A DNA stretch of 64,000 bases from an uncultured Actinomycetes bacterium (GTDB lineage Bacteria; Actinomycetota; Thermoleophilia; Miltoncostaeales; Miltoncostaeaceae), in assembly GCA_903896045.1 (NCBI GenBank), contig CAITWD010000022.1:4398-68397 (forward strand). The letters are read 5' to 3'. Shown one piece after another: positions 26,168-58,551 of this stretch. The stretch's first letter is position 1. Each line of letters begins with the position of its first letter. Under the pieces are notes generated by a model, which saw only the letters and a program-made list of their open reading frames with translations, was not told the origin of the DNA and did not search any database. Both the position numbers and the translations under genes were made by a program.

Positions 26168-26868
26168 ACGACGATGAATTTATTTACGGGCGAAATCCTG
26201 TTCGCGAGGCAATCGCTGCAGGGCGTCGCACCATTGACGAGGTGTGGGTGTTGCCACAGCTCGCCGAGACGGAGTGGCTGACCGGTGTCAAGGTAAAGAT
26301 CCGCTCCAAGGCCGAAATTGGCCACATGGCGGGAACCGGCGACCATCAAGGCATCATGGCCTTCACCGATGCCTACCCATATGCATCTGAGCGCGAGATG
26401 TTGCGCGCCCCGAAACCCATCGTGGTGCTCGACGGCGCGCAAGACCCCCGCAATTTTGGTGCCATTTGCCGGGTGGCCGATGCCGCCGGCGCAATTGGCA
26501 TCGTGATGCCACGACGGGGTTCGCCGGGGGTGACAGCGACGGTCTGCAAGACATCGGCGGGCGCAGTTGAGCATCTACTGGTCGCACGCGTAGATAGCAT
26601 CGCGGGGTTCCTCAGCGAGGCTGCCGATATCGGTCGGCTCATCGTCGGATCTGACGCAGAGGCCCCAACCGACTTTCGTTCTGTGACGTGGACGCCGAAT
26701 TCGGTGATTGTCATGGGAAGCGAAGGGGCGGGACTGCGTCCGAAGGTTGCGGCAGGATGTACACACATGGTTTCCATACCTATGCAGGGAAAAGTTGCCT
26801 CGTTGAATCTCTCGGTGGCCTGCGCCTTGTTGTTGTTTGAAGCGGTTCGCGGAGATATTTCAACCTAA
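26164..26868 (+). CDS. rlmB: 23S rRNA 2'-O-ribose G2251 methyltransferase (SpoU/TrmH family)
   Basis: IYGRNPVREAI N-domain plus SpoU methylase C-domain (GSEGAGLR, SLNLSVA). GTGA overlap with cysS. Confidence 0.9.
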   Translation: MNDDEFIYGRNPVREAIAAGRRTIDEVWVLPQLAETEWLTGVKVKIRSKAEIGHMAGTGDHQGIMAFTDAYPYASEREMLRAPKPIVVLDGAQDPRNFGAICRVADAAGAIGIVMPRRGSPGVTATVCKTSAGAVEHLLVARVDSIAGFLSEAADIGRLIVGSDAEAPTDFRSVTWTPNSVIVMGSEGAGLRPKVAAGCTHMVSIPMQGKVASLNLSVACALLLFEAVRGDIST

Positions 26869-39163: not shown

Positions 39164-42100
39164 CCGCCCATCTGTGGCGACTACCCTCGATGGACTGCTC
39201 CTTGGCGTTCCTGAGATCGCACAGGCGTGTGCGCTCCGGGACGTGGGCGCCCGCGCCCACGATCTTCGGCTCGCGCGTCCAGCCTGGAGTTTTGTGATTG
39301 CGGCCTTGAGCCGATCTGCCGAGCGGCCACTGTTGGTGATCTGCGCAGAGGATGATGAGGCGCGCGATCTTGCCGTCGATCTCGAAGCCCTTGTTGGTCG
39401 TGCTGCGGTGGCGTTATTTCCTTCGCGAAGTGTTCCACTCGATGGTCCGGTTGGCGCCTCGCCTCATCTGGTTGGCCAGCGGGCACGTGCCTTGGCCTCT
39501 GCGGACCGACCCGGCACAATCGTTGTGTCGGGCGCTCCGGCGCTCGCTGAGTTGATTGCGCCCCCCGACGCGTGGCCAGAACCATTTCGCGTGGGCGTTG
39601 GCCAGCAGGTCGACCTCGACGCGCTGATCGATCAATTGATCGCGCGTGGCTATGAACGCACAAGTCAGGTTGAGGAGCGCGGGGAAATCGCGGTGCGTGG
39701 CGGACTTGTCGATGTCTATCCCACAAGTGCAGATCTGCCAATTCGCATTGAATTTTTTGGCGATGAGATCGAAAGCATTCGTGCCTTCTCGCCCTTTACC
39801 CAGCGCACAATTCGCCCCATTACGCGCACGGTGATTTGGGCTGCGGCGGAACCCGTGGTCACCGACGGGCTCGTCGATCCGCTTTCTGGCGGAGGGCTGC
39901 ACGCAATCGATGTGATTCGGCTTGATCCCAATGCCCACCCAGGGGCGTTGCGCGATGCACGTGAACGCTTTGCCGATGAAGCGATTGCGGGAGCGCTGCG
40001 CGATATCGAGCCGTTGCTTGTCGTGTGCGCAGAGCGCAGCCTCATGGATATTTTGCCACCGACCGGCCCCGACGCGGTCGTGGATGCGGTCCAGGCGAAA
40101 TTTGCAACGCGCGGATACGCAGAAGCCGAGGGTGAGCTTGCGCGACTTGCCCGAAATGGCCATCGGGTGGTGGTGGGCTTTACTCGACGCGGCGACATGG
40201 AGCGAGCTGCACTGCGTTGTACCAAAATCACGCCAACGATCCTCGGTTCGGGTGAGCTTCCTGCACCCGGAGCAGTGGGATTCAGCCCGCTTGATATTCG
40301 CGAAGGAATGATCTCGCATGCGCTCTCGGTCGCGATCATTCCCGAGGCCAATATCTTCAGGCGCCGGCGCGCGGCTGCCGAGACAGGCCCCGTCGTTGGC
40401 CGTCGTCTGGCGAGTTTCATGGATCTGCGGATTGGCGATTACGTCGTGCATGAGGATCACGGCATTGGCCGCCTGATTGGGTTTGAGACGCGCACCGTTG
40501 CGAATGTGACCCGCGATTACCTCGCGCTCGCGTTTTCCGGCAGCGACCGGGTCTTCGTGCCGCATGATCAGCTCGAGAAGGTCACGCGCTATGTCGGGGC
40601 CGATGGCTCCGAGCCCACGCTTTCCAAGCTCGGCGGCAAGGCATGGGACAAGATCAAGGCGCGCGCGCGAGCGGCGGTGCGTGAGATGGCAGGCGAATTG
40701 ATTTCACTCTACGAGGCCCGACAACGTGTCGAGGGATTCGCATTTCCGCCGAATGATGAGTGGGTGATGGAGCTCGAGCAGCGCTTTGCGCATCGTGAGA
40801 CCCCCGACCAGCAGCGTGCAATCGACGCGGTATATGACGACATGGAACGCCCGCGCCCCATGGACCGCCTGATTTGTGGCGACGTGGGATTCGGCAAGAC
40901 CGAGATCGCTATGCGCGCGGCGTTTAAGGCCGCCGTTGCAGGCAAGCAGGTCATGGTGTTGGTGCCGACAACTATTTTGGCCCAGCAACACGCATCGACA
41001 TTTCGTGAGCGCTTCGCAGATCTACCCGTCTCTATCGACATGGTGAATCGGTTCAGAACGCAGGCTGAAACCCGTGATGTGCTCGAGCGCTTTCGCACTG
41101 GGGCGCTCGACATCTTGGTTGGGACCCATCGATTGCTGTCGATGGATGTACAGCCTGCGGATCTGGGATTGGTGATCGTCGATGAGGAGCAACGCTTCGG
41201 AGTCGCCCAAAAAGAGGCACTGCGCCAATTGCGGGTGCGCGTTGATGTACTCGCCTTGAGTGCGACGCCAATTCCGCGGACATTGCAGATCTCCATGTCG
41301 GGATTACGTGAGATCAGCGTGATTGAAACACCGCCGCGCGGACGGCGTCCGATTGCGACCCATGTTGGCGAGTTTCAAGAGGATCTTGTGCAGCAGGCAT
41401 TGCGCACCGAAAAGGAGCGCGGAGGCCAAAGCTTTTTCCTGCACAATCGCGTCGAGACAATTCAGAACGCCGCCGAGCGCATTACCGCATTGGTTCCGGA
41501 GTTGCGCGTATTGGTCGCGCATGGGCAGATGCCCGAGCATCAGCTTGAAGAGGTCATGATCACCTTCATTCGCGGTGATGCAGATGTGCTTGTGGCGACC
41601 AGCATTATTGAGAGTGGCCTCGATATTCCTCAAGCCAACACCTTGATCGTCGAGCGTGCGGACCAGCTGGGTCTGTCGCAGCTCTACCAAATTCGTGGAC
41701 GCGTCGGGCGCAGCAATGTGACTGCGCATGCATATCTGCTCTATTCCGATGAGTCAGGGCTGACGCGTGAGGCCGCCGCACGCCTGCGGGCATTGGCGGA
41801 CTACACCGAGCTTGGCAGCGGGTTACGTATTGCCATGCGCGATCTTGAAATTCGCGGTGCGGGAAATCTCCTCGGCGATGAGCAAACCGGACATGTCGCG
41901 GCGATTGGATTTGAGCTCTATGTGGAAATGCTCCAAGAAGCCGTCGCGCTCGGGCAGGGTGCACCCATCCCTGACCGAGATGTACGGATCGATATTCCCA
42001 TCTCCGCCTACATCCCGGCAGAGTACGTCCCGTTTGAGGCCGCAAAAATTGAGTTGCATCGTCGTATTTCGCTCACGCAGGATCTTGAGGCGATCGCAAC

Positions 42101-46896: not shown

Positions 46897-47222
46897 CCCC
46901 GGGTGATGCAGAGATTGCGTCGGCCCGCTTTGAGTGGGATGAGGGATTGCGCCGCATCGGAGCTGATGACTCGTCCTCGCGGGCGGCGCGTGTGGAGTTG
47001 TCGTTTGCGGTGGGTGATGAATTGCGCCGCCGACTCGGGATCACCTTCAATATTGCGCAACTGACCGGGGCCTATCAAACCTCGCATGAGTGGTACTTCG
47101 CGCTTGCCGCACGTCTTGCGCCAGGAGACCCGGAGGCATGGGAGCCGTCGATCGCCCTTGATGCCGGGTTTGCGCGGATGGCGCGCCTGGCGACCGACGC
47201 GCCCGGTCGGGGTCGCGGCTAG
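46893..47222 (+). CDS. Hypothetical 109-aa protein translationally coupled to DUF501
   Basis: GTG 46893 overlaps the DUF501 TGA (GTGA). Protein-like composition. No family recognised. Confidence 0.5.
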   Translation: MTPGDAEIASARFEWDEGLRRIGADDSSSRAARVELSFAVGDELRRRLGITFNIAQLTGAYQTSHEWYFALAARLAPGDPEAWEPSIALDAGFARMARLATDAPGRGRG

Positions 47223-48238
47223 TCGCGCAACTGGGGTGGGGCAGGCGCAGTCCAGATCGCAGCAAGAATGGGGTCACTGGTGATCCCGCGGGTCATCAGG
47301 GCGTGAATATCCGGGAGTGCATCTCGGCGCAGAAAAATATGGCGCTGGCCGACGTTCCTTTTTTCTCCCAGCAGCCCAGCACGTAGGAGTGCTTCGATCA
47401 CCATGAGTGCGTCATGGCGTTGATCGGCAGGAACGCCCCGTGAGAGATGGTCAATTGCGGTGTGGTAATTCCTTCCGACCTTTCCCATCCGGAGCAGACG
47501 CTGCAGCATCCGTCGCGCATGCCGCCGCCGCGGGCATGGGTCATCGTCGATTCCGTTTCCGAGCTCATCATCATCGTCGGGAAGCGGATCCCCGGAGAGA
47601 CCCCAATTGCGCAGGTTGCGTTCCATATCTGGGTCACGTGCGTCGATGTCGAGTGGTTGGCCGTGGGCGGCAAGCGCGATTGCCACCTCGACCGGATGCG
47701 CACCGACCGCATGTCCGAGGACCGCGATGCCACTCTGCCCGCGGGCACGCCCAAGATCAATCTCAGCGACCTCTTGGAGTGGATGCGGCAGTGGGGTGAT
47801 GGCAATTCGCGCGGCATCTGGGAGACGTTCGCCAAGCGCGAGCCCGAAGAGATCGGGATCGGCGCCTCGGGCGATCAGCACCGTCCATCCATGCCAATCC
47901 CCACACATCAGCATCTCTGAGTCGGCGCCGACATCAACTGCTGCACCAATTGCCATCACCAGCACACGTGCGGGAGCGGGGGGTGAAAAGCTTTGTGCAT
48001 GCGCGGTTGTGATTGGCAGGATCCATGCCGGGGTGCCATCAACTGTCGCGCCGCTCCACGCCCAGAGCGTCATTGCCCGCCCATGTGTCTCCCGTGCGCT
48101 TGCGGCAAGTGTTTGCGCGATCGCATCATCGTGGTCGCCGCGCTGCCATGCCACGAGGTCGTGGGCGACCTCATCGGGACGACGGGCAAGATCTGCGAAG
48201 GTGACCTCTCGTTGACCCATGCATGCAATGTCGCACAT
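47219..48238 (-). CDS. Hypothetical 339-aa protein, unknown family
   Basis: Long ORF with genome-typical codon bias. Acidic linker DDDDELGNGIDDD, then basic RRRHARRMLQRLLRMGK and a possible winged-helix-like C-terminus. Confidence 0.65.
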   Translation of the reverse strand: MCDIACMGQREVTFADLARRPDEVAHDLVAWQRGDHDDAIAQTLAASARETHGRAMTLWAWSGATVDGTPAWILPITTAHAQSFSPPAPARVLVMAIGAAVDVGADSEMLMCGDWHGWTVLIARGADPDLFGLALGERLPDAARIAITPLPHPLQEVAEIDLGRARGQSGIAVLGHAVGAHPVEVAIALAAHGQPLDIDARDPDMERNLRNWGLSGDPLPDDDDELGNGIDDDPCPRRRHARRMLQRLLRMGKVGRNYHTAIDHLSRGVPADQRHDALMVIEALLRAGLLGEKRNVGQRHIFLRRDALPDIHALMTRGITSDPILAAIWTAPAPPQLRD

Positions 48239-48299: not shown

Positions 48300-48542
48300 T
48301 TACTTCGGCAGTAGCGGCTCGCCACGTTCGTATCGTCGCGCCAGCCAGTCGCGCAACTGCGTGCGCTGTTGTTCATCAAGCCAGTGCGTCAGCACGTGCC
48401 GCAGACGCGTCAGCGCATCTCCGGCACCCGCAAGGGCCTGATTGCGCCCAGTACGCCATGCGATCCATCCCACCAGGTGCTGCGCATCCTCTTCGCTCAA
48501 ATAGAGGCCGCAGAATCGCTCGATGTCGTCAATGGTGGACAT
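48300..48542 (-). CDS. Hypothetical 80-aa helical protein, candidate SOS-regulated
   Basis: ORF MSTIDDIERF...RDWLARRYERGEPLLPK. The LexA-type box ends 16 nt upstream of its ATG. Confidence 0.6.
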   Translation of the reverse strand: MSTIDDIERFCGLYLSEEDAQHLVGWIAWRTGRNQALAGAGDALTRLRHVLTHWLDEQQRTQLRDWLARRYERGEPLLPK

Positions 48543-48558
48543 AGAGCGGTCAGTGTAG

Positions 48559-48572
48559 CGAACATATGTTCG
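48559..48572. promoter_or_regulatory. LexA operator (Cheo/SOS box) CGAACATATGTTCG
   Basis: Exact 14-bp palindrome matching the Gram-positive consensus CGAAC-N4-GTTCG. It overlaps the putative promoter (TACACT -10) of the 80-aa gene. Confidence 0.7.
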
Positions 48573-48606: not shown

Positions 48607-48634
48607 CTTCACCGCGCCGATGGGCGCGGTGAAG
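48607..48634 (-). terminator. rpoZ terminator hairpin
   Basis: CTTCACCGCGCC-GATG-GGCGCGGTGAAG, a 12-bp perfect stem. On the minus strand it is followed by GTTCGTTTC. It lies 30 nt after the rpoZ stop. Confidence 0.6.
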
Positions 48635-48663: not shown

Positions 48664-49197
48664 CTAGGACTCGTCTTCTTCGTCGTCTTCAGCTTCTTGC
48701 TCGGCCAATCCCTCAAGGCTGACATCCAAGAGGTCGTCGCCATCGGCGGTTTCTTCTTCTTCAGCGTCGTCGATGTCGTCGTCGACTGCAGTATCGCCCT
48801 CGAGCACCTGAGCCAGCGCAGGGGTGAGATCGCTGTCGTCGTCTGCGCTGAGCTCGGTTTCATCGTCATCTTCGGTCAAGCTCTCGAGCAAGAGCGTGTC
48901 CTCGAGTGGATCGACGATTGTTGCCGACACGGGCTCCGGCTCGATGTCTTGTCCCTCTGGGTCCCAATGCACGATGACCTCGCCAGCGAGGATCTCTGCT
49001 TCGGCAAGTGCGACCGGGTCACGAGTGATGAGCTCGCCTGCTGCCGGAGGCGGAGCGGACTCCGCGCGCAGCTCCGCCGGGTCGGCGGTCAACCAGAGGG
49101 TGATTTGCCGTGCACGCTTCGAGACCGCGTGAACCAGCGCATACCGTGACCCATCAACGTGTTCCAACGCTTGATCGAGTCGACGTCCGTACAGCAT
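48664..49197 (-). CDS. rpoZ: DNA-directed RNA polymerase subunit omega with long acidic C-terminal tail
   Basis: MLYGRRLDQALEHVDGSRYALVHAVSKRARQI omega core. GGAGGG SD before ATG 49197. About 85-aa D/E-rich tail. Confidence 0.8.
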   Translation of the reverse strand: MLYGRRLDQALEHVDGSRYALVHAVSKRARQITLWLTADPAELRAESAPPPAAGELITRDPVALAEAEILAGEVIVHWDPEGQDIEPEPVSATIVDPLEDTLLLESLTEDDDETELSADDDSDLTPALAQVLEGDTAVDDDIDDAEEEETADGDDLLDVSLEGLAEQEAEDDEEDES

Positions 49198-49298
49198 AGA
49201 AACCCTCCGTCGGTTCAATATCGGGAACAGCCCCGACACGGCATACTAGCTGACATGCAGAGCACCTCTGCATTCGGAGTGCATGGAGGCCTCTGCTA

Positions 49299-49517
49299 AT
49301 GCTCGTACTGACTCGCAAGAAGCATCAGAGCATCATTATCGGAAGTGAAATTGAGATTTCCATTCTTGAGGTGACAGGCGACAAGGTTCGTCTCGGTATT
49401 CAGGCTCCTCGGGACGTGTCGGTGTTTCGCAAAGAGGTGCTGATTGCAATTGGCCTTGACGGGGACGGCAACCTCGCAATTAAGGATGTCACCCAAACCG
49501 ATTCTGAGGCCGCCTAG
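49299..49517 (+). CDS. csrA: Carbon storage regulator CsrA
   Basis: [47 protein letters not shown] is the CsrA signature. GGAGG SD. Confidence 0.9.
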
Positions 49518-56503: not shown

Positions 56504-57295
56504 ATGTCACGCACTGCACGAGTTTTGGCACTTGCCAATCAAAAAGGTGGCGTTGCGAAGACGACCACGACGATCAACATGGGCGTTGCCCTGAAGGGCA
56601 TGGGATATCGCGTGCTCGCGATCGATCTCGACCCGCAAAGCAACCTTTCGATGAGTCAAGGCATCGACGTCGAGAATCTGACGTTGACGATGTATGACGT
56701 GCTGGTCCGCGAAACCCCGCTGGCCAATCTCATCCACGCGCGTGAGATTGACATTGCCCCTGCGGGGATCGAGCTTGCCGGGGCGGAACTTGCCCTGACT
56801 GCCACGATGGGGCGCGAGCGCGCCCTGCAGCGTGCACTCCGTCCGATGTTGGATCTCTATGACGTGATCTTGATCGACACTCCGCCGTCGTTGGGTTTGT
56901 TGACCATCAACGCGATGGTCGCCTCGCATGGGGTGATCGTGCCGGTGCAGTGCGAGTACCTTTCGCTGCGCGGACTTGCGCAATTGCAGTCCACGCTTGA
57001 GCAGGTGCGCGAGCACTTGAATCCCGACATCGCGATCGCAGGAATACTTCCGACGATGTACGACGGGCGGACATTGCATGCGCGTGAGGCCGTCGATGTC
57101 TTGACCCAGAGTTTCGGTGACATTGTCTATCCAGTGCGGATCGGGAAAACGATTCGGTTTGCTGAGGCTCCTGTGAGTGGACAAAGCGTCCTGTCGTATG
57201 ACCCAGATGGGCAGGCCGCGCGGTGGTACCGCCAGCTTGCGCGTCTTGTGGCTGAGCGCGAATTACGCCCGGTGCCCGAGGAGGTAGGTGCATGA
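56504..57295 (+). CDS. parA: ParA/Soj-family ATPase (orphan; no parB adjacent)
   Basis: Deviant Walker A NQKGGVAKTT, LAIDLDPQSN, ILIDTPPSLG. Confidence 0.9.
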   Translation: MSRTARVLALANQKGGVAKTTTTINMGVALKGMGYRVLAIDLDPQSNLSMSQGIDVENLTLTMYDVLVRETPLANLIHAREIDIAPAGIELAGAELALTATMGRERALQRALRPMLDLYDVILIDTPPSLGLLTINAMVASHGVIVPVQCEYLSLRGLAQLQSTLEQVREHLNPDIAIAGILPTMYDGRTLHAREAVDVLTQSFGDIVYPVRIGKTIRFAEAPVSGQSVLSYDPDGQAARWYRQLARLVAERELRPVPEEVGA

Positions 57296-58551
57296 CAACT
57301 GGCCGTCCAGGACGCACAAGCATGCGGGAAGGACCGCTGTCGGATTTGTTCCGCAGTACCGATCCACCGCGTTCAAATGCGGGGACCGAACAGCTCTTTA
57401 CCCCGACAGATGCCGCTCCGACGCCAGATGTCAACAGCTATGTCGCACTGATCCGTGTTGTCGGCGTCGGTGGTGCTGGCTGTAATGCGATCAACCGCAT
57501 GGTGGAAGCTGGTCTGCGGGGTGTGGAGTTCATCGCGATCAATACCGATCGTCAGGCGCTCGACGCCTGTCGGGCAGATGTGCATATTCCCGTCGGCCTC
57601 GAGCTGACCAAGGGGCGGGGCACAGGCGGCGACCCCTTTAAGGGCGAGCAGTCCATCCGTGATGCGGAGGATCAGATTCGCCGCGCCTTGCGGGGCAGCG
57701 ACCTTGTCTTTATTGCCTCCGGCCAGGGCGGGGGGATGGGCAGCGGTGGCGCACCGATGGTGGCGCGAATCGCCCGCGAAGTCGGTGCCCTCGCAGTTGC
57801 CGTCGTCACGAAGCCATTTCAGTTCGAGGGGAAGCGACGGGTGCAGGTCGCCGATGAAGGAATTGCGCGCCTGCATGACACCGCCGATACGGTCATCGTG
57901 ATTCCGAACGACCGATTGATGACGGTGCTCGAGCGCGGGACATCGATGGTGAGCGCTTTTCAAGTCACCGATGATTTGTTGCGCCAAGGGGTGCAGGGCA
58001 TCTGCGACATGATCACCCTGCCTGGATTGATCAATCTCGACTTTGCCGATGTGCGCACCGTGATCCGCGATGCGGGCGAGGCGCTGTTGGGTATTGGGTA
58101 TGCGGGCGGCGGTAATCGCGCCGCCGAAGCAGCACAGGCAGCGATTTCCTCCGCGTTCTTGGAGACTCCAATCGATGGTGCCCGTGGGGTGCTCCTCGGG
58201 ATCACCGGTGGCCCAGACCTCTCATTGCTCGAGGTATCAGAGGCGGCAGAAATCGTTGCTGCGGCTGCCGACCCAGATGCCAACATTATCTTTGGTGCAG
58301 CAATTGATCCCGAGCTGTCGGGCCAGGTGTGGGTGACAGTCGTTGCCGCAAGCTTTAGTGGGGTGCGGGCTGCGCCATCATCAAACCCTGAAGCGGAAGA
58401 ACGCGCGGGCCGTTTGATTCCGCGTGCGATTGGTCGCTCAGTTGCATCGGTGAGTGGGGCTGTGCCGCGCAGTGCGCTCGAGAGTGCTGCGCATGAGCAG
58501 ACCAGCCTTGATGTGTCAGACCACGTGCACGCAATCGACACCGAGGAGTAG
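57292..58551 (+). CDS. ftsZ: FtsZ-family tubulin-like GTPase (atypical context and termini)
   Basis: IRVVGVGGAGCNAINRM, GQGGGMGSGGAP, T7 loop NLDFADV. GAGGAGG SD and ATGA overlap with parA. Confidence 0.9.
   Translation: MTTGRPGRTSMREGPLSDLFRSTDPPRSNAGTEQLFTPTDAAPTPDVNSYVALIRVVGVGGAGCNAINRMVEAGLRGVEFIAINTDRQALDACRADVHIPVGLELTKGRGTGGDPFKGEQSIRDAEDQIRRALRGSDLVFIASGQGGGMGSGGAPMVARIAREVGALAVAVVTKPFQFEGKRRVQVADEGIARLHDTADTVIVIPNDRLMTVLERGTSMVSAFQVTDDLLRQGVQGICDMITLPGLINLDFADVRTVIRDAGEALLGIGYAGGGNRAAEAAQAAISSAFLETPIDGARGVLLGITGGPDLSLLEVSEAAEIVAAAADPDANIIFGAAIDPELSGQVWVTVVAASFSGVRAAPSSNPEAEERAGRLIPRAIGRSVASVSGAVPRSALESAAHEQTSLDVSDHVHAIDTEE

Follow-up and report, generated by a model that had tools for sequence, protein, structure and literature searches.

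The 14-bp perfect palindrome CGAACATATGTTCG (CGAAC-ATAT-GTTCG), located at positions 48559-48572 of the 64-kb stretch of DNA analysed in our study (hereafter the window), is most probably a high-affinity operator of the SOS repressor LexA, placed in the spacer between the -35 and -10 elements of the promoter of a monocistronic gene for a protein of 80 amino acids (aa). Judged by the comparison of homologous loci, this gene is very probably a new, tightly repressed gene inducible by DNA damage. It is the comparative evidence that decides the case, since about 95 lineages keep the box, a -10 hexamer of the TANNNT type and the gap between this hexamer and the start codon, while the flanks have diverged completely. 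In regard to the kind of system, the 80-aa gene would represent an additional gene of the SOS regulon, which is well known, with a product that appears to be new and clade-specific.

Thermoleophilia are abundant, almost uncultured Actinobacteria of soil and sediment, and to our knowledge nothing is known about the regulation of their response to DNA damage. The locus described here is the first clean and testable candidate for an SOS promoter in this class, in which the operator is perfect, the -10 hexamer defined and the start putatively leaderless. It also offers a candidate clade-specific SOS effector without a known fold, and the box itself could be used as a probe for defining the LexA regulon of the class.

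The box and its promoter in the window

The first-pass annotation of the window had described a perfect palindrome of 14 bp matching CGAAC-N4-GTTCG, just downstream of the rpoZ terminator on the minus strand, 16 nt before the ATG of an 80-aa ORF and adjoining a TACACT hexamer located 9 nt from this ATG. Position and sequence of the palindrome, which is not assigned to a strand, both hold on re-reading, and so does the arrangement around it. On the minus strand, the terminator hairpin is separated by 34 nt from the box, which is followed by a single C, the hexamer TACACT (48557-48552), the 9-nt stretch GACCGCTCT (48551-48543) and the ATG at 48542, so that the distance from the box to the ATG is indeed 16 nt. 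The ORF occupies positions 48300..48542 of the same strand. The claim that there is no second GAAC-N4-GTTC was borne out by a scan of the full 64 kb, in which the site at 48559-48572 is the sole CGAAC-N4-GTTCG and also the sole GAAC-N4-GTTC.

The chance expectation given together with these claims, about 2e-4, overstates the significance of the site, because the motif specifies 10 bases and not 14. In dinucleotide-preserving shuffles of the window, the mean number of sites was 0.12, and at least one site was present in 11 of 100 shuffles. Within the window alone, the box is suggestive, yet statistically not significant, and its significance derives from its position in a promoter and from its conservation between species, not from the statistics of the window. 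Two sites with one mismatch were considered as further operators and rejected as chance matches, both being located inside genes: one at 26191-26204 (CGAAATCCTGTTCG), within the coding region of a SpoU/TrmH methyltransferase, where it encodes the conserved YGRNPVREA motif, and another at 40237, within the coding region of mfd. As far as we know, radA, mfd and mutY are not expected to be LexA targets in Actinobacteria, and for this reason the lack of a box at these three genes is uninformative either way.

In regard to the promoter, the hexamer TACACT (48552..48557, minus strand) is of the TANNNT type, lies 1 nt 3′ of the box and is separated from the start codon by 9 nt (48543..48551) in which no Shine-Dalgarno sequence is present. 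Because of this stretch of 9 nt lacking a Shine-Dalgarno sequence, the mRNA would be leaderless, or its leader would not exceed about 3 nt. The promoter carrying the box can be classed, by its sequence, as leaderless-type, since it lacks a Shine-Dalgarno sequence and its -10 hexamer falls in the range of about 6-12 nt before the start codon, and for the predicted leader a length of 0 or of 2-3 nt is equally possible. It resembles leaderless actinobacterial promoters in the succession of TANNNT, 9 nt without a Shine-Dalgarno sequence and then ATG, GTG or TTG in the different members of the family. However, the gap of 9 nt exceeds the 6-7 nt expected for a transcript starting exactly on the start codon, while the gene p339 in its neighbourhood shows the classical version with a gap of 6 nt. 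The box fills the spacer directly 5′ of the -10 hexamer, and the predicted site thus overlaps or abuts the core promoter elements in the manner of SOS operators, with the promoter itself being assigned from sequence only.

Conservation of the box across the gene family

The 80-aa ORF belongs to a small Thermoleophilia-specific family, the homologues of which have about the same length and share 42-100% identity. Clustering at 90% identity divides the family into 14 clusters. When 1.84 billion representatives were searched exhaustively with an HMM, 48 clusters at 50% identity were obtained, which consist of short proteins throughout, with nothing found beyond the family itself. Its members were found in 42 species-level genomes and 51 metagenome contigs, and the named sources are nearly all Thermoleophilia or Miltoncostaeaceae metagenome-assembled genomes. 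The gene is carried by complete or near-complete assemblies of Miltoncostaeaceae, namely the chromosome OY969782.1 (2.87 Mb), CAVTPK010000011.1 (3.1 Mb) and CAWIOJ010000001.1 (1.9 Mb). There are 20 invariant residues in the family alignment, including the block LVGWIAWRTGRNQALAG. In pairwise comparison, the differences at the three codon positions amount to 0.32 (position 1), 0.26 (position 2) and 0.45 (position 3), with the order position 3 > position 1 > position 2, a pattern that points to a coding sequence under purifying selection. According to these comparisons, the ORF is a genuine conserved gene, with a family restricted to Miltoncostaeaceae and related Thermoleophilia.

Wherever the DNA preceding a homologue could be read, the box was present in it. 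In the first 11 loci, corresponding to 6 independent lineages, exactly one GAAC-N4-GTTC was found in each, always directly upstream of the homologue. The box was likewise present in all 42 GTDB species loci and in 47 of the 51 metagenome loci, the remaining 4 being cut upstream by the end of the contig; in one of these four (L089), the end of the -10 hexamer, with the discriminator, can still be recognized at the first bases. The DNA located 5′ of the box cannot be aligned between lineages. In 740 kb of non-redundant DNA of the clade, perfect 14-mers occur solely at the promoter of the 80-aa gene (46 of 46), and about 30 sites with one mismatch found elsewhere have GC-rich spacers and lie nearly all inside genes, their number being close to the estimated chance expectation of about 22. 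The full 14-mer is perfect in these 46 non-redundant sources, as it is in the majority of the 47 metagenome loci that bear the box, and the rare variants are GGAAC, AGAAC and GTTCT.

When 41 unique promoters are compared, the information content comes close to its maximum over the box and falls nearly to zero in the flanking DNA. The N4 spacers are dominated by ACAT (18), ATAT (6, the spacer of the window), ATGT (5) and GTGT (4), next to similar others, and the RNRY rule fits 39 of the 41. A TANNNT hexamer, most commonly TATCCT, follows the box after 1-2 nt in 40 of these promoters, and the start codon is then found 9 nt further (10-12 nt in one subgroup), again with no Shine-Dalgarno sequence. 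In several lineages, the 5′ edge of the box is adjoined by TTGAAT, TTGACT or TTGTAT, and the presence of such TTGNNT sequences directly at the box indicates that the operator would fill a -35/-10 spacer of 16-17 nt. On the other hand, the T and A that extend the mycobacterial consensus to 16 bp are not conserved among the promoters of the family. These comparisons show that strong purifying selection acts on the box, the -10 hexamer and the spacing throughout the family. Since a perfect consensus operator is present in essentially every lineage, the repression of the gene would be very tight. The proposal of the first-pass annotation, a Cheo-type LexA operator acting on the 80-aa ORF through a near-leaderless promoter, is thus supported by the evidence for a real gene, by the conservation in about 95 lineages and by the RNRY spacer.

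The box also exposes a recurrent error of annotation, with gene starts called upstream through the operator. The N-terminal over-extensions of mis-called homologues, containing EHMF or RTCVR, are the translated box, and such starts, placed too far upstream, were repeatedly assigned by gene callers (P0008, P0009, P0010, P0013 and P0136, as well as positions 2204-2497 of L003). The most divergent member of the family (42% identity; positions 1668-1935 of L053) was found on a contig labelled as Fimbriimonadaceae (Armatimonadota), where the box is degenerate, ending in GTTCT, and no TANNNT follows it. Such a copy could be a result of mis-binning, or of horizontal transfer accompanied by decay of the regulation.

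Genomic neighbourhood

The upstream neighbour of the gene, outside the regulated unit, is rpoZ, encoding the omega subunit of RNA polymerase (48664..49200, minus strand; Pfam RNA_pol_Rpb6), which is called as 177-179 aa in sister contigs and has its stop codon at 48664 in the window. The protein of about 178 aa carries an extremely acidic (D/E-rich) C-terminal extension of about 90 residues, and its length is kept in relatives (calls of 167-193 aa). A terminator scan placed the intrinsic terminator hairpin of rpoZ at 48607..48634 of the minus strand. It consists of 12 base pairs, of which 9 are G-C, is followed by a tail rich in T, and has a folding free energy of -39.3 kcal/mol (z = -3.65). 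By this structure, the promoter of the 80-aa gene may be insulated from the transcription of rpoZ.

Downstream, on the same strand, lies p339 (47219..48220), a conserved protein of Thermoleophilia with 302 homologues across the class and without a Pfam or NCBIfam family. Its AlphaFold2 model (pLDDT 90.6) contains a C-terminal winged-helix domain, resembling in Foldseek the DNA binders of ArsR, AspA and TubR type, while no structural match was obtained for the N-terminal alpha/beta domain. The promoter of p339 has the form GCGCTACCGT-N6-ATGGCG in most lineages, and in the group to which the window belongs it consists of GACATT (48232-48227), 6 nt and the ATG at 48220. This arrangement of the -10 hexamer, N6 and ATG is conserved whatever the neighbour, and the true start of p339 is probably the ATG at 48220 and not position 48238. 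No significant terminator was found between the 80-aa gene and p339 (z = -1.24), and read-through into p339 in the window is possible, as an incidental and not a required event.

In flagellated relatives, p339 is located about 9 kb away and is unlinked to the 80-aa gene. The ancestral order of genes is csrA(-) rpoZ(+) [ABM monooxygenase(-)] 80-aa gene(+) [fliW(-) flagellin(-) flgK(-) flgN…] p339(+), so that the CsrA-FliW module is an ancestral neighbour of the 80-aa gene. The flagellar block is absent from the lineage of the window and from several others, in which the 80-aa gene is followed by p339 on the same strand, and neither fliW nor flagellin nor flgK was found in the 64 kb of the window. 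A comparison with loci L014-L052 showed that csrA (49299-49517 of the window, plus strand) is kept next to rpoZ. It seems that the lineage of the window lost the flagellar block, leaving csrA as an orphan. Given the distance of about 9 kb in flagellated genomes and the promoter that p339 has of its own, the conserved regulated unit would be the 80-aa gene alone. A conserved operon partner of the 80-aa gene was also considered and rejected, as the downstream genes are usually convergent (fliW, rpoZ) and p339 has its own promoter.

In at least 8 lineages, the gene and its box were found in unrelated, non-syntenic contexts, referred to here as type-2 loci. As the box moves together with the gene into such contexts, the regulation appears to belong to the gene and not to the locus. 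All-against-all clustering of ORFs revealed no consistent partner at the type-2 loci, with the result being dominated by spurious ORFs of high GC content. In one of these contexts (positions 3968-5060 of L010 and 987-2078 of L011), a member of one subfamily bearing the box is located 146 nt upstream of a tyrosine recombinase of 221 aa that comprises the catalytic domain only, and HTH_17, PIN and RPA (plasmid replication) genes are present nearby. This suggests that the copy is carried on an integrative element.

The protein acting at the box and the possible role of the product

Winterling and colleagues reportedly described, in 1998, the consensus of B. subtilis LexA/DinR with an RNRY spacer, CGAAC-RNRY-GTTCG. 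Among other motifs of the damage or stress response in Actinobacteria, that of PafBC/RecA-NDp and that of ClgR, GTTCGC-N5-GCGAAC, differ from the box in the orientation or in the sequence of the half-sites. In M. tuberculosis, the LexA operator is TCGAAC-N4-GTTCGA and was described as similar to the site of B. subtilis (PMC3381160), and in Streptomyces venezuelae the LexA site, determined by ChIP-seq and SPR, is tCGAAC-N4-GNNCGa (PMC9380542). The box of the 80-aa gene is identical to the Cheo box of B. subtilis and Actinobacteria in the palindrome, the half-sites, the 4-bp spacing and the RNRY preference, and it shares with the sites of many SOS genes the overlap with the core promoter. It differs in that the flanking T and A of the 16-bp form of mycobacteria are not conserved, and in that neither a cognate LexA nor further members of a regulon were observed in the DNA of the clade covered here. 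In addition, the consensus is perfect here in nearly all lineages, while most natural SOS boxes contain mismatches, as seen in the table for S. venezuelae (PMC9380542).

A search with tblastn using LexA of E. coli, B. subtilis and M. tuberculosis gave no hit in the window or in 104 loci (about 1 Mb), and the outcome was the same for E. coli RecA, RuvA and RuvC, with the window and related loci of about 1 Mb covered. Core SOS genes such as lexA, recA, ruvC and dnaE2 were absent from this DNA. The flanks of the window, about 10 kb on the left and about 4.5 kb on the right, hold housekeeping genes only, with no LexA or S24 domains. A search of plasmid records gave LexA copies of Streptomyces, Firmicutes and Collinsella only, none of them phylogenetically close enough, and a search of the literature on LexA in Thermoleophilia found nothing relevant. 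Rubrobacter radiotolerans RSPS-4, a deep-branching actinobacterium of a sister class, is without lexA, and a plasmid copy of lexA in Rubrobacter is mentioned (PMC4148983). As LexA was not seen in about 1 Mb, and as lexA is missing from Rubrobacter radiotolerans RSPS-4, we infer the presence of LexA in the clade indirectly, and consider it quite likely on account of the exact match over 14 bp and the strength of selection.

According to the proposed mechanism, a LexA dimer bound to the box in undamaged cells would block RNA polymerase, and the 80-aa gene would be silent until DNA damage occurs. RecA bound to single-stranded DNA would then trigger the self-cleavage of LexA, and the promoter would fire. 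The resulting mRNA, leaderless or nearly so, would encode a small, soluble and all-helical protein. Both the inducibility of the gene by damage and the proposed start of the transcript are inferred. In a more radical variant, the clade would be without LexA, and another factor would have taken over the Cheo box.

This variant is related to an explanation that we regard as unlikely, namely that the box is the operator of another factor, either the 80-aa protein itself or p339, with its identity to the LexA box being a coincidence or a relic taken over in a clade without LexA. A dedicated local regulator would be expected from a perfect box present at one gene only in about 1 Mb of clade DNA, but the missing boxes elsewhere say little, because all of that DNA comes from one syntenic neighbourhood. 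Another factor would also be in line with the negative searches for LexA in about 1 Mb of clade DNA and with the absence of lexA from some deep-branching Actinobacteria. However, the box matches the LexA consensus exactly over 14 bp, including RNRY, and the prior chance that an unrelated factor would share the half-site and the spacing is estimated at about 1e-4. As for the two candidates, the model of the 80-aa protein matched no DNA-binding fold, helix-turn-helix included, and this speaks against autorepression. The winged-helix domain of p339 and its frequent occurrence as a neighbour would make it a plausible binder, but p339 is distant from the gene in flagellated genomes and absent near type-2 loci. 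The binding of p339 to the box is therefore rated unlikely, its linkage to the 80-aa gene being an accident of the flagellar deletion.

The context of the gene has also to be considered in relation to mobile elements. It is very unlikely that the 80-aa gene is an SOS-triggered switch of such an element, acting as an anti-repressor or as an activator of excision or transfer, with the chromosomal copies being domesticated remnants. The member that lies with its box upstream of the tyrosine recombinase, in the vicinity of HTH_17, PIN and RPA genes, would fit such an origin, as would the eight species loci in varied, non-syntenic contexts. Against it, the chromosomal surroundings of most copies (csrA-rpoZ-...-fliW or p339) are stable and contain no integrase, and the type-2 contexts share no mobile-element genes. 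Likewise, the family had no match in 50,697 phage genomes, 72,556 plasmids and 2.9 million IMG/VR viral contigs and none in PADLOC, and its matches in PHROGs, seen for 3 of the 14 members, were only marginal (best E = 1e-3). Finally, it is hardly conceivable that the palindrome is a chance occurrence, or a part of the rpoZ terminator region, without any regulatory role. One perfect site per 64 kb does arise in 11% of shuffles, and the site of the window lies close to the terminator, yet about 95 independent lineages have kept the box between diverging flanks, and it follows the gene where the upstream neighbour is not rpoZ but PadR, ABM, DUF6159 or others. Such a reading is effectively refuted by the comparative data, and binding by LexA is the explanation retained here.

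In regard to the product, an AlphaFold2 model built with the family alignment (pLDDT 83.5) contains four to five helices and no transmembrane segment, and the protein is predicted to be soluble and all-helical, with a novel fold. None of the 14 members had a match in Pfam or NCBIfam at E < 0.01, Foldseek detected no similar structure in PDB (best E = 5.3) or BFVD (best E = 1.9), and a sequence profile search of PDB gave nothing below E = 0.2. The protein was not found to belong, by sequence or fold, to the known families of small SOS proteins (SulA, DinI, YebG, the YneA/ChiZ LysM type and DUF3046). The 80-aa protein and p339 were both considered as relatives of LexA, and both were rejected by hhalign with a probability below 1% (0.2% for p339).

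Lineage-specific small effectors of the SOS response under the control of LexA include SulA in E. coli, YneA in B. subtilis and ChiZ/Rv2719c in M. tuberculosis, and DivS of C. glutamicum, SidA of Caulobacter and small proteins of the DinI/YebG type are likewise controlled by LexA. The 80-aa gene would resemble them in being small, clade-restricted, monocistronic and placed behind a strong box, and its tight repression suggests a product that is, in a similar way, kept off during normal growth. On the other hand, the 80-aa protein is without sequence or fold similarity to any of these effectors, it differs from YneA, ChiZ and SidA in having neither a transmembrane segment nor a LysM domain, and its gene is not divergent from lexA.

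By analogy with these systems, it may tentatively be proposed that the product is an SOS effector with a harmful action in normal growth rather than an enzyme of repair. It could serve as a checkpoint on growth or division, or be a protein-binding modulator of another kind. With similar reserve, the 80-aa protein could be viewed as a possible founder of a new class of SOS effectors, fully off until induced and then binding a cellular target and arresting growth, division or motility. In its function, such a protein would be a counterpart of SulA, YneA or SidA without being related to them. Candidate targets would be the division machinery, RecA or LexA, the omega subunit of RNA polymerase, or the CsrA-FliW module. 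If the protein is a checkpoint factor, it would represent an independent solution to halting the cell cycle during repair, and if it is not, the gene would be an SOS gene of the ordinary kind, supported exceptionally well by the comparison of lineages. As a separate observation on the window, positions 56504-58551 (plus strand) hold a pair of genes, one for a ParA/MipZ-like ATPase and, directly downstream of it and with an overlap of 4 nt, one of the FtsZ/tubulin family, and this pair is located downstream of a two-component system.
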